Of a stretch of DNA of 64,000 nt, positions 45,369 to 49,213 are shown one piece after another (position 1 is the first letter of the stretch; each line of letters starts with the position of its first letter). The DNA lies in NCBI RefSeq assembly GCF_003334765.1, contig NZ_QOWT01000007.1; one strand, 5' to 3'. Both the position numbers and the translations under genes were made by a program. Origin of the DNA: Escherichia coli. GTDB lineage: Bacteria > Pseudomonadota > Gammaproteobacteria > Enterobacterales > Enterobacteriaceae. Under the pieces are notes generated by a model. The model was not told the origin of the DNA. It ran no database searches and was given only the letters and a program-made list of their open reading frames with translations.

Positions 45369-46706
45369 ATGAGTCATCAACATACCACCCAGACTTCTGG
45401 TCAGGGGATGCTGGAACGCGTGTTTAAACTGCGCGAACATGGCACGACGGCACGGACCGAAGTGATCGCCGGTTTTACCACCTTCCTGACGATGGTTTAC
45501 ATCGTTTTTGTTAACCCGCAAATTCTTGGCGTTGCTGGCATGGATACCAGCGCCGTCTTCGTCACTACCTGTCTGATCGCTGCATTCGGCAGTATTATGA
45601 TGGGACTGTTTGCTAACCTGCCAGTTGCACTGGCACCCGCTATGGGCCTGAATGCGTTCTTCGCTTTTGTCGTTGTACAGGCGATGGGCTTGCCGTGGCA
45701 GGTCGGGATGGGCGCAATCTTCTGGGGCGCGATAGGTCTGCTGTTACTGACGATTTTCCGCGTTCGCTACTGGATGATAGCCAACATTCCGGTGAGTCTG
45801 CGTGTGGGTATTACCAGCGGTATCGGTCTGTTCATTGGCATGATGGGGCTGAAAAACGCAGGTGTGATTGTCGCTAACCCGGAAACGCTGGTGAGCATCG
45901 GTAATCTGACTTCTCACAGCGTACTTCTGGGTATCCTCGGCTTCTTCATCATTGCTATTCTGGCCTCGCGCAACATTCACGCAGCGGTGCTGGTTTCTAT
46001 CGTGGTGACGACGCTGCTGGGCTGGATGCTGGGTGATGTGCACTACAATGGCATCGTTTCTGCGCCGCCGAGCGTAATGACAGTTGTGGGTCATGTAGAT
46101 TTAGCCGGGTCGTTTAACCTCGGGCTGGCAGGGGTGATTTTCTCTTTCATGTTGGTCAACTTGTTTGACTCCTCCGGTACGCTGATTGGCGTGACCGATA
46201 AAGCAGGTCTGGCGGATGAGAAGGGGAAATTCCCGCGCATGAAGCAGGCGCTGTATGTCGACAGTATCTCTTCCGTGACCGGTTCGTTTATCGGTACTTC
46301 TTCCGTTACGGCTTATATTGAGTCCTCTTCCGGCGTATCGGTTGGCGGTCGTACCGGTCTGACGGCAGTGGTTGTTGGTCTGCTGTTCCTGCTGGTTATC
46401 TTTCTGTCGCCGCTGGCGGGGATGGTGCCAGGCTACGCTGCAGCTGGTGCGCTGATTTACGTTGGCGTGCTGATGACTTCCAGTCTGGCACGCGTGAACT
46501 GGCAGGATCTTACTGAATCTGTTCCGGCGTTTATTACCGCCGTGATGATGCCGTTCAGCTTCTCGATTACCGAAGGTATCGCGCTGGGCTTTATCTCCTA
46601 CTGCGTGATGAAAATCGGTACCGGACGTCTGCGTGATCTAAGCCCGTGCGTAATCATCGTTGCGCTGCTGTTTATCCTGAAGATTGTCTTTATCGACGCT
46701 CACTAA
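45369..46706 (+). CDS. adeP: Adenine permease (NCS2/AzgA family)
   Basis: ORF track 445 aa; MSHQHTTQTSGQGMLERVFKLREHGTTARTE. Confidence 0.9.
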   Translation: MSHQHTTQTSGQGMLERVFKLREHGTTARTEVIAGFTTFLTMVYIVFVNPQILGVAGMDTSAVFVTTCLIAAFGSIMMGLFANLPVALAPAMGLNAFFAFVVVQAMGLPWQVGMGAIFWGAIGLLLLTIFRVRYWMIANIPVSLRVGITSGIGLFIGMMGLKNAGVIVANPETLVSIGNLTSHSVLLGILGFFIIAILASRNIHAAVLVSIVVTTLLGWMLGDVHYNGIVSAPPSVMTVVGHVDLAGSFNLGLAGVIFSFMLVNLFDSSGTLIGVTDKAGLADEKGKFPRMKQALYVDSISSVTGSFIGTSSVTAYIESSSGVSVGGRTGLTAVVVGLLFLLVIFLSPLAGMVPGYAAAGALIYVGVLMTSSLARVNWQDLTESVPAFITAVMMPFSFSITEGIALGFISYCVMKIGTGRLRDLSPCVIIVALLFILKIVFIDAH

Positions 46707-46759
46707 AATCGATAGCGCGTTAAAAACCCGCCATGCATGATTGCTGGCGGGTTTTTTAT

Positions 46760-47326
46760 TTAGATCTTAACTCGCTGAATAAACTCACCAAATGCGGTCA
46801 ATTGCCCGGTCAGGTGGTCCAGCGTACCCTGATCAATCACTTCTCCGGTTTGCGGATCAACTTTGTTCTGAATCACGCCGCCCATAAATTCCGGCTTGTT
46901 CATCACCATTGCATCGAGGAAAACCAGAATCTGGCGCAGGTGATACTGACAGCGCGCGCCGCCAATCACGCCCATTGAGCTGGTCTGAATCAATACCGGT
47001 TTACCGGCCAGCGGTTGATCCGGCAGGCGGGAAAGCCAGTCGATGGCATTTTTCAGCCCACCCGGTACCGAGTAGTTATATTCCGGCGTGACGATCACCA
47101 CACCGTCAGCCTGACGGATCTGTTCCGCCAGAGCTTCAACCGTTGCTGGAAAACCTTCTTCCTGCTGTACGTCAGCGTCATACAAGGGAATGTCGGCAAT
47201 GGATGGTAACGCATTGACTTCCATGCTCGCCGGAGCAATTTTCGGCAGGGTACGTGCAACCATGCCATTAAATGAGCCTTTGCGCAGGCTCCCCAGTAAC
47301 GTAACCACCTGCAATTTTTCAGACAT
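46760..47326 (-). CDS. chrR: NAD(P)H-dependent FMN reductase / chromate reductase
   Basis: ORF track 188 aa; MSEKLQVVTLLGSLRKGSFN (flavodoxin-like NADPH-FMN reductase fold). Confidence 0.9.
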   Translation of the reverse strand: MSEKLQVVTLLGSLRKGSFNGMVARTLPKIAPASMEVNALPSIADIPLYDADVQQEEGFPATVEALAEQIRQADGVVIVTPEYNYSVPGGLKNAIDWLSRLPDQPLAGKPVLIQTSSMGVIGGARCQYHLRQILVFLDAMVMNKPEFMGGVIQNKVDPQTGEVIDQGTLDHLTGQLTAFGEFIQRVKI

Positions 47327-47347
47327 GATGACTCCTGTGGTTGTCTA

Positions 47348-48109
47348 TCAATTTGGCGAAAAAGCCTTCACGGTAGAGAGTTGGGCAAAACGCATCATCC
47401 GGCTGGTAGGATTGTTGGCGCGGCTGTGAATATCCGGCAGGCTTTTCCAGCCGTGTTTGCCATCTAACTCCCAGACACTGAGCTTTTCAATCGTGGGCGT
47501 GACCGCCACGGACCACACCAGCACGTCTTCCGCGTCGCATAACGCTTCTACATGATTTACATGAGCACATTTCAGGCGTCCGGCAATGGGCAGCAGCTGC
47601 AGATCGCGCGGATCGTCATTCAAAACATCACCGGTTAGTTTTAGCACGCTTCGGCGCAGCGTGATGAGCTGCGCCCGCGCTTCGTTAGGATCGTTTTGTT
47701 TACTGATCCATAGCGATTCATTGCTGGAAAAGGTGTGGTTATCGGGCGCGTGTGGGCTATGAAACCCGCGCGTCGCACGCTGTAGTTCCATATCGAGGCC
47801 ACATTCACCTTCGGTTGTTAACGCCACGCCAACCATATTCCCGGCATAGGAAATGGAAAACGAAGGCAAATTTTTATCACTGAAAACCGGTTTACCTTTC
47901 GGCAGGGTGACGATTTCCGGCAATTCGCCAATGCCATACAGCATGAACATCAGTTCTGCGAGTAAACCTCTGGACGCCAGAAAACGGCTTTGACGATGAG
48001 GGGGAATGTTTCGGGCTTCTTGATGACACTGGGAGGGGAGACGAACAGAAATCAGATGTCCTTCCGTTAAAATCCCTCGGGCAAAGTGAGTCGCCATTTT
48101 TCGCTCCAT
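47348..48109 (-). CDS. yieE: Putative phosphopantetheinyl-transferase-like protein
   Basis: ORF track 253 aa; a second in-frame ATG at 48097 (MATHFARG) has a GGAG 9 nt upstream and may be the true start; 22-nt gap to chrR suggests co-transcription. Confidence 0.8.
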   Translation of the reverse strand: MERKMATHFARGILTEGHLISVRLPSQCHQEARNIPPHRQSRFLASRGLLAELMFMLYGIGELPEIVTLPKGKPVFSDKNLPSFSISYAGNMVGVALTTEGECGLDMELQRATRGFHSPHAPDNHTFSSNESLWISKQNDPNEARAQLITLRRSVLKLTGDVLNDDPRDLQLLPIAGRLKCAHVNHVEALCDAEDVLVWSVAVTPTIEKLSVWELDGKHGWKSLPDIHSRANNPTSRMMRFAQLSTVKAFSPN

Positions 48110-48253
48110 GCTTAATGGTCCATTATGAATACAAGAGTAATCATTTACTGGAATGATGGACAGACTAAAGCGGCTAAAAGTTCGATTCAGACAAGCTTAT
48201 TACAACTTTTTTACATTTTATTGTGAAATTGGGTCGCGTTTCATACGATTCGG

Positions 48254-49213
48254 TTATGCCATCGACGCGTAAAGGTTTTTAATGGTTTCCCGTAACCAGA
48301 CGATCTTCGGATTATGGCTGTTCCGTTTATGCCACAGCAGGGTAAAAGGAACTTCCAGCTTTTTTTGCTGGCTTTCGTCAAACGGGAGAGGAAGAGCAAC
48401 CAACGGCAGTTGATGGAGTTGATTGTAGTACTGACAGTAGCGCGGCGCGGTCGCCAGTAGCAGATTGTCGGGTTGCGCTGCCATAAACAGTGACTGCTCG
48501 AATTCCGGCAGGCTCATAGCAATCGTGCGTTCGCGTCCCAGCTCCTGTAACACATTGTCCAGCGCCCAGGTATCGCTCTGTTCCCAGCAAATGCTGATAT
48601 GCGGATAACGTAAGAAGGTGTCCAGATTCCACGTTTGATGCAGTGCCGGATGATCTTTGCGTAACCAGACGCAGGGCACATCACTAAACAGCACTTCATA
48701 ATCAATGGCTAACGGTAGCGAGCTTAACAGCTCCCGCGAGCGAGGATGGCTTTCGCGACCGGAAAAACCGATATCCACTTCACCACGAGTAATGGCATCT
48801 AAGGAATCGTAATCCCAGTTACGTAATTTGATGGTCGCCTGCGGGTAACGTTGGTAGATCTGTTTCGACAGCGCATTAAGCATGATCATCATCAGCGGTG
48901 ATTCCGCCGCCAGCTCAAACTTCAGGCCGCGCGGTGTCTGGTGGTGCGGTTTATCCAGCAGCAGGTTGCTCATTTGCATCCACTCCGCCAGATTTTGCTC
49001 CATGCTGACCATCAGCGGTGTGGGCGACAGACCCAGCGGTGAGTTCACAAAGAGCGGGTCGTCAAACCACGCTCTTAACTTTGCCAGCGACTTACTCACC
49101 GCCGAAGGTGTCACGTTTATCCGCTTCGCCGCTTTGGTTACGCTGCGCTCCTGCATCAGCAGTTGCAGACAAAGCAGCAGATTGAGATCAAGCGTGGTGA
49201 TGGATTTCTTCAT
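48254..49213 (-). CDS. yidZ: LysR-family transcriptional regulator
   Basis: ORF track 48254..49222; start placed at [29 protein letters not shown] (319 aa); HTH then LysR substrate-binding domain. Confidence 0.88.

Follow-up and report, generated by a model that had tools for sequence, protein, structure and literature searches.

YieE, encoded beside the quinone/chromate reductase ChrR in Escherichia coli, descends from AcpT-like phosphopantetheinyl transferases and lacks their conserved active-site glutamate

The yieE-chrR locus and its transcription

The genes yieE and chrR (yieF) lie next to each other on the minus strand of a 64,000-nucleotide stretch of Escherichia coli DNA (contig NZ_QOWT01000007.1 of assembly GCF_003334765.1; hereafter the window). 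An earlier note, made from the sequence alone, had described them as a flavin reductase gene preceded by an orphan gene for a phosphopantetheinyl transferase (PPTase)-like protein. Here we report that YieE descends from AcpT-like, Sfp-type PPTases and that the glutamate serving these enzymes as third magnesium ligand is replaced in YieE and its Enterobacteriaceae orthologs. Both open reading frames (ORFs) were found where the note had placed them (Table 1), and they are not chance ORFs, since both are shared across the family Enterobacteriaceae and purifying selection acts on both. The window is E. coli K-12; 1.8 kb of sequence spanning the pair show 100% identity to MG1655, and of the 5426 complete E. 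coli genomes, 5416 contain them with a coverage of at least 80%; yieE is a core gene of the species.

RefSeq names the two products '4'-phosphopantetheinyl transferase family protein' (yieE) and 'class I chromate reductase' (yieF). On the minus strand it gives the order mnmE, tnaCAB, mdtL, yidZ, yieE, yieF, with adeP convergent on the plus strand; bglH, yieL, yieK, cbrCB and yieH are the other annotated neighbours. In agreement with the earlier note, the 6 kb flanking the pair on each side contain no annotated gene for a carrier protein, a nonribosomal peptide synthetase or a polyketide synthase. No defence model of PADLOC matched YieE or ChrR, and an Rfam scan of positions 46500-48500 at E ≤ 1 returned just three sub-threshold chance matches, all around the terminator.

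Table 1. Features of the yieE-chrR locus in window coordinates, and YieE residues at conserved Sfp positions
Feature	Coordinates	Strand	Description
yieE coding sequence	47348..48097	-	249 aa plus TGA stop; ORF, same start in RefSeq
chrR (yieF) coding sequence	46760..47326	-	188 aa; ORF, RefSeq, Pfam and PDB match
5' leader, non-coding	48098..48109	-	12 bases from the upstream in-frame ATG; holds the yieE Shine-Dalgarno GGAG
yieE sigma70 promoter core	48126..48139	-	-10 element TACTCT 48139-48134, 7-bp spacer, transcription start A 48126; mapped from PMC7876045
yieE-chrR spacer	47327..47347	-	21 nt, tagacaaccacAGGAGtcatc; chrR Shine-Dalgarno AGGAG at 47332-47336
Intrinsic terminator after chrR	46717..46756	-	hairpin 46722-46756, U-run after, A-run before
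Sfp H90, YieE Y84	codon 47846..47848	-	lost; FNISHS motif reads FSISYAG
Sfp S91, YieE A85			lost (hhalign)
Sfp D107 and E109, YieE D102 and E104	codons D102-M103-E104 47786..47794	-	retained, GLDME; first and second Mg-ligand positions
Sfp F143, YieE R141			lost (hhalign)
Sfp W147, YieE I145			lost (hhalign)
Sfp E151, YieE R149	codon CGA 47651..47653	-	lost; LITLRRSVLK vs canonical LWTLRE(S/A)xLK
Sfp K155, YieE K153			retained (hhalign)

ChrR is the known NAD(P)H-dependent flavin mononucleotide (FMN) quinone/chromate reductase and is reported to form a tetramer. It matches the Pfam family FMN_red (PF03358) at E = 1.7e-43 and, over all residues 1-188, the PDB entry 3SVL ('protein yieF') at E = 6e-122, which bears out its earlier description as a flavin reductase. 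The identity of chrR and its operon are textbook knowledge, and the gene pair as such is already in the databases and in the literature, where the unit is named 'yieEF' and yieE is called a 'predicted phosphopantetheinyl transferase' (PMC2648988, PMC2731931).

Two in-frame ATG codons can open the yieE ORF, giving proteins of 253 aa (47348..48109) or 249 aa (47348..48097), and the earlier note had left the choice between them ambiguous while crediting the second with the better Shine-Dalgarno sequence. To compare loci, we used a scan of 100,044 reference genomes, which yielded 219 relatives of YieE; 80 species-level loci were kept, all apparently from Enterobacteriaceae (one record carries an evidently wrong organism name), and together with E. 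coli itself they make up the 81 loci counted below. The second ATG and the N-terminus MATHFARG are present in all 81 loci, and GGAG occurs at -10 to -7 in 71 of them; in the window it lies at 48104-48107, with a spacing of 6 nt before the ATG at 48097. An ATG at -12, corresponding to window position 48109, occurs in 19 loci and is missing in 62, with ACG (38 loci), AAG (8), CGG (7), AGG (6) and CAC (3) among the triplets found instead. This upstream ATG has no Shine-Dalgarno sequence, and its own G belongs to the GGAG. Because the downstream ATG, the N-terminus and the GGAG are conserved, the upstream ATG is rare and RefSeq agrees, we assign the start of yieE to the ATG at 48097 and reject a start at 48109.

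In a nascent RNA analysis, the yieE promoter served as the model of a promoter-proximal pause that depends on sigma70 and is sensitive to Gre factors, and it was validated in vivo and in vitro (PMC7876045); yieE is thus expressed. We placed this promoter in the window from the text and the primer table of that study (tactct -10R mutants, 7-bp spacer, A+1pU primer). A -10-like CATAAT at 48127-48122 overlaps the transcription start and causes the sigma70-dependent, GreA/GreB-relieved pause at +17 (PMC7876045). From the transcription start, the leader measures 29 nt to the ATG at 48097 and 17 nt to that at 48109; the +17 pause position adjoins the latter, non-conserved ATG. The leader also contains a trivial out-of-frame AUG at 48123 with a stop after three codons. 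Our promoter pattern scan returned one promoter-like site at 48244-48215, which differs from the promoter defined by experiment. In E. coli W3110 (locus L091), an IS2 element of ~1.3 kb is inserted between yidZ and yieE at a position corresponding to 48225-48232 of the window. This position falls within the promoter-like site, ~100 nt before the point where transcription of yieE begins. The window has no such insertion and in this respect resembles MG1655.

The note had suggested an operon on account of a 22-nt spacer. The spacer is in fact 21 nt long, and the operon reading on the same strand stands. The AGGAG of chrR lies five bases upstream of its ATG, and the pattern scan detected no terminator-like site between the two genes, the spacer being too short for one. 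Among the 76 genome-scan loci that retain chrR, 74 have a spacer of 10-41 nt together with a GGAG for chrR. The two exceptions are a 125-nt gap (L022) and a 16-nt overlap with the chrR start (L035); in each of them a moved stop codon lengthens the YieE ORF (to 259 and 264 aa, respectively). Downstream of chrR, the terminator RNA folds with -22.6 kcal/mol (z = -5.3), and none of 200 shuffled sequences folds as well. The hairpin is flanked by an A-run and a U-run, and therefore it probably terminates both chrR and the convergent adeP; the pattern scan missed it, probably because a bulge interrupts the stem. Microarray studies report that both genes rise together, upon acid shock (1.5 and 1.6; PMC2270276) as well as in benzalkonium chloride-tolerant cells (1.0 and 0.8; PMC3344204). 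With a shared strand, a short terminator-free spacer, one upstream promoter and one downstream terminator, the operon yieEF is well supported, and a transcript spanning both genes is likely. In the reading that we favour, transcription of yieEF starts at the sigma70 promoter at 48126, with YieE translated from the ATG at 48097 and chrR from its own Shine-Dalgarno sequence 21 nt past the yieE stop, and ends at the hairpin at 46722-46756.

Further upstream, the start of yidZ differs between the mechanical ORF list (TTG at 49222, 322 aa) and RefSeq (ATG at 49213, 319 aa). With either start yidZ overlaps the 3' end of mdtL, whose stop is at 49188, and this overlap suggests translational coupling in an mdtL-yidZ unit.

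Homology, fold and active site of YieE

To assess the relationship of YieE to PPTases, we compared it with domain, sequence and structure collections. Searched against Pfam, both alone and as the first sequence of an alignment, YieE gave no match even at E ≤ 10. The Pfam family ACPS (PF01648), of which YieE is thus not a member, matched 46 of the 63 sequences of the alignment, namely the distant ones, and the 120 close homologs listed have no precomputed Pfam domain except for gene-fusion calls, which are domains of the neighbouring gene. A phmmer search with YieE against PDB sequences gave just a chance match (E = 0.76), and a profile built from the YieE clade alone retrieved from the PDB spurious designed TIM barrel repeats and weak asparaginase matches but no solved PPTase.

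The sole NCBIfam match of YieE was AcpT (NF007676), with E = 6.9e-11 and 42.1 bits over residues 36-141, which falls short of the full-length 174 bits that mark an AcpT equivalog. The sequence that we take to be AcpT scored 395.5 bits against its own NCBIfam model. In a BLASTP comparison with AcpT, YieE showed 34% identity over residues 20-107 and nothing detectable after residue 107.

A full scan of 1.84 billion representatives supplied relatives of YieE down to 20% identity. A profile with intermediate sequences matched Sfp at 2e-21; as the clade-only profile misses PPTases, such intermediate sequences are needed to detect the homology. Aligned by hhalign, the YieE clade matched a set of Sfp and 42 canonical relatives with a probability of 100% (E = 5e-47). 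The AlphaFold (AF2) model of YieE has a mean predicted local distance difference test score (pLDDT) of 89.5 and a predicted template-modelling score (pTM) of 0.87, and its top match in Foldseek was Sfp (4mrt_A, E = 1.7e-10), followed by AASDHPPT, PptAb, PptT and PcpS. By descent and fold, YieE belongs with the Sfp-type PPTases, monomeric proteins of ~220-250 aa with two pseudo-symmetric alpha/beta lobes. In a neighbour-joining tree, the chrR/adeP-linked YieE clade was monophyletic in 100 of 100 bootstraps and branched from within the canonical PPTases; E. coli AcpT belonged to a neighbouring clade. YieE descends from AcpT-like, Sfp-type PPTases, and the homology is secure.

We then compared the residues of the active site, with the register taken from hhalign, species counts from the 81 loci and a wider survey of 190 full-length homologs. 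In Sfp numbering, P76, F86, G105, D107, E109, E127, F143, W147, E151 and K155 are invariant in the 43 canonical sequences, and H90 and S91 are nearly so. His90 of Sfp contacts the 3'-phosphate of coenzyme A (CoA). YieE retains the essential aspartate that is the first magnesium ligand, the lysine that follows the catalytic glutamate and the GKP motif of the adenine pocket. The glutamate that is the third magnesium ligand is absent, and so are the counterparts of His90 and Ser91 in the FNISHS motif (Table 1). Across the 81 loci, P70 is invariant and position 69 is always Lys or Arg (GKP motif), D102 and E104 are found in 78 loci each, and R148, S150 and K153 are invariant. Tyr at position 84 is likewise found in all 81 loci, where 36 of 39 relatives in the bin of 20-29% identity have His.

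The most telling position is 149, the equivalent of Sfp Glu151. It is occupied by Gln in 69 loci, by Arg in nine (among them E. coli) and by His in three, and Glu occurs in none. In the wider survey, no homolog with more than 38% identity to YieE has Glu at this position, the residues seen being Q, R, H, K, A, N and S, and full-length relatives of at most 32% identity have Glu in all but one case, a member of the YieE clade with Arg (P0160). Arg at this site cannot ligate magnesium. Alanine substitutions at the corresponding glutamate inactivate two Sfp-type PPTases, SchPPT (E151A, in vitro and in vivo) and Hppt (E155A), the second magnesium ligand being dispensable (PMC4103896). In three intact orthologs (L064, L069 and L076), one or both acidic residues of the GxDxE motif are missing as well (GLNMT, GL--A, GLALA), as would fit a relaxed constraint that extends beyond the third ligand to the entire metal site.

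The term PPTase-like in the earlier note is therefore borne out in part. It holds for homology and fold; it fails in the Pfam, phmmer and clade-profile searches and at the active site, where other residues have taken the place of the catalytic Glu, the motif Trp and the His that binds CoA. The note had proposed a hidden Markov model search against ACPS/Sfp profiles as a check and had accepted that the lack of a PPTase-domain hit would speak against it; since no Pfam domain matched even at E ≤ 10, its claim formally falls on that point.

Selection, history and linkage of the YieE clade

Despite these replacements, the YieE ORF is intact in all 80 species loci (241-264 aa). The ratio of nonsynonymous to synonymous substitution rates (dN/dS, pairwise Nei-Gojobori) of yieE is 0.02-0.17, similar to those of mdtL and yidZ and above those of chrR and adeP. 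As it is under purifying selection, yieE is not decaying. YieE has its own invariant, clade-specific residues, including H4-G8, GRL 173-175, DAED 188-191, W195, W209 and G216-W217, many of them in the C-terminal lobe.

Four more distant lineages carry the gene in similar surroundings. Those with chrR downstream are Serratia (P0139, 38% identity to YieE, Gln at the Glu151 site), P0160 (about 33%, Arg) and P0150 (31%), the last of which retains the Glu, has the Tyr and gives a Pfam ACPS match; in P0128/P0283 (42%, Gln), adeP follows directly and chrR is missing. The NCBIfam AcpT score drops along the same series, from 395 for AcpT over 113, 104, 68 and 54 to 42. The most economical history suggested by these sequences is a stepwise loss after a move beside chrR and adeP. 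An AcpT-like PPTase would have come to adjoin the two genes, and in that lineage His90 would have changed first to Tyr, then Glu151 to Gln, Arg or His (Arg149 in Escherichia), and then Trp147 to Ile, Leu or Val.

We also investigated whether the neighbourhood points to a role of YieE in quinone or chromate reduction. In favour of a functional link, the next gene downstream of yieE is a co-directional chrR in 76 of 80 loci, the pairing extends from Escherichia as far as Serratia and further lineages, the spacers are very short within Enterobacteriaceae, and two data sets show co-regulation. Against this, synteny throughout the family takes in the entire block mdtL-yidZ-yieE-chrR-adeP, so that adjacency alone is little informative. 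chrR was lost and yieE kept in four Enterobacteriaceae species (L033, L040, L042 and L075), where adeP directly follows, and the P0128/P0283 lineage, too, has a convergent adeP directly after yieE (L082, L083 and L093 are listed). In the Serratia, P0150 and P0160 lineages the gap between yieE and chrR is ~160-200 nt, which leaves room for a separate promoter; YieE shows 31-38% identity where ChrR shows 72-81%, pointing to sharply different rates; and overexpression of sigmaE raised yieE, not yieF. We consider it about evenly balanced whether the adjacency reflects no more than inherited synteny and shared transcription, with a role of YieE unrelated to quinone or chromate reduction.

Two further observations concern the same loci. 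A single record from Salmonella enterica subsp. salamae (P0094, 397 aa) joins YieE, from residue 50 on, to ChrR through the translated spacer; it may reflect a genuine loss of the stop codon or a mistake in sequencing or annotation. In Serratia (L085/L086, 6532-7584) and in the P0150 lineage (L089, 3122-4204), a gene of 350-360 aa, on the same strand as yieE, separates chrR from adeP; it has no Pfam match and is absent from E. coli.

Possible roles of YieE and comparison with known systems

Since the third magnesium ligand is essential where it was tested and is absent in YieE, YieE is most likely no longer a carrier-protein PPTase. We consider it fairly probable that YieE, as a descendant of an AcpT-like PPTase, has been repurposed or is catalytically dead, the loss of activity and the new role being read from the sequences. 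Such a protein would keep the two-lobed fold and the GKP and GxDxE motifs of its ancestors and may still bind a CoA-like nucleotide. Because yieE is under purifying selection and YieE has invariant residues of its own, the protein has probably been retained for another role, be it a non-catalytic one or one with an altered chemistry. The earlier note had left the substrate of YieE as a question; judged by its residues, the likelier answer is that YieE has ceased to be a PPTase, rather than that it is an orphan PPTase awaiting a substrate.

Several points weigh against this reading. The claim of inactivity draws on residue logic and on alanine mutants of other enzymes. Gln can weakly ligate magnesium, and D102 and E104 of the GxDxE motif each persist in 78 of 81 loci, so that a two-ligand metal site with some transferase activity is conceivable in the Gln-bearing orthologs. 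The conserved R148, S150, K153 helix and the GKP motif would be expected if CoA binding, and perhaps an alternative catalysis, had persisted. Purifying selection alone fits an active enzyme equally well. As to the transcription unit, co-transcription of yieE and chrR in Enterobacteriaceae is likely, but sigmaE raised yieE, not yieF (PMC2731931).

A more specific form of the proposal is that YieE is a pseudoenzyme that was orphaned beside chrR and adeP in early Enterobacterales, lost Glu, His and Trp stepwise and was kept under purifying selection for a role new to this fold. This scenario is possible, and we advance it tentatively. The new role may, for example, be that of a sensor or partner binding CoA or 3',5'-ADP in connection with the quinone-reductase stress response of ChrR, or may involve a Glu-independent chemistry. 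We know of no described pseudo-PPTase, and our literature searches found none.

That YieE is instead a working PPTase of narrow specificity, whose carrier substrate is encoded elsewhere in the genome or has been lost, appears unlikely to us, though this view of the earlier note is the main rival. Homology to the superfamily and the fold are secure, YieE retains the lysine of the catalytic helix, the GKP motif and both acidic residues of GxDxE, and yieE is under purifying selection. AcpT, the closest curated family, is an orphan too, separated in K-12 from its aryl-polyene carrier proteins, and shows activity in vitro (PMC8253772); a canonical relative of YieE lies inside an aryl-polyene cluster. 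What speaks against it is the active site. Glu is absent at the third magnesium ligand in 81 of 81 loci, and the Arg of E. coli cannot take its place; Ala at this Glu abolishes the activity of two Sfp-type PPTases (PMC4103896). The equivalents of His90, Trp147 and Phe143 are lost as well, and three intact orthologs lack the Asp and/or Glu of GxDxE, too. Moreover, a Streptomyces carrier domain was fully apo when produced in E. coli. In K-12, acpS is essential and entD mutants make no enterobactin; YieE therefore replaces neither at native levels.

The idea that yieE is a decaying relic, persisting only because the chrR transcript takes its promoter and 5' region from it, could appeal to the lost catalytic residues, the missing Pfam match and the fastest evolution among five neighbouring genes, but it is highly improbable given an ORF intact in all 80 species loci, many invariant clade-specific residues, the retention of yieE in lineages without chrR and its place in the E. 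coli core genome, and a pseudogene is effectively refuted by the dN/dS of 0.02-0.17, a value well under that of neutral evolution.

YieE is an uncharacterised 'y' gene product of the best-studied bacterium, and every genome annotation labels it as a phosphopantetheinyl transferase. Our literature search, which left most subscription journals outside, found no publication that analyses YieE as a PPTase, assays it or notes the lost Glu. If the catalytic Glu is truly dispensable for what YieE does, the PPTase label would be misleading in thousands of Enterobacteriaceae genomes; the question of which E. coli PPTases activate foreign carrier proteins would have a simpler answer, and so would that of what occupies the 'fourth PPTase' slot of metabolic models. 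The clade offers a rare graded series, from the active-looking YDEWEK over YDEWQK to YDEIRK, in a protein that is under selection throughout, which makes YieE a tractable case of the transition from enzyme to pseudoenzyme. The possibility that YieE is the first pseudo-PPTase is thus a testable idea on an uncharacterised gene; it does not amount to a new system.

Compared with known systems, the chrR ORF of the window is the class I chromate reductase ChrR/YieF (3SVL, PF03358) without any difference. For YieE, the best structural match is Sfp of B. subtilis (1QR0, 4MRT), the prototype of the group II PPTases, with template-modelling (TM) scores of 0.63/0.69 at 16% identity; Sfp, for its part, is a promiscuous active enzyme. 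The nearest curated family is AcpT (YhhU), which has the same two-lobed fold class and shares 34% identity with the N-terminal lobe of YieE, including the GKP, F(N/S)xS and GxDxE motifs. Like yieE, the AcpT gene lies apart from any carrier-protein gene in K-12; AcpT activates ApeE/F homologs in vitro, and its cognate substrates are of the aryl-polyene kind (PMC8253772). However, AcpT retains the full H-D-E-W-E-K signature, of which the H, the W and the second E are replaced in YieE by Y, I and R. The PPTases of aryl-polyene clusters, such as P0172, belong to the same AcpT-like radiation and, with 27-31% identity, are among the closest canonical relatives of YieE. In contrast to YieE, they are encoded within a biosynthetic cluster (ketosynthase, ketoreductase, ApeP-like, DUF3261 and MMPL proteins), at the end of which P0172 is located, and they match Pfam ACPS and possess all catalytic residues.

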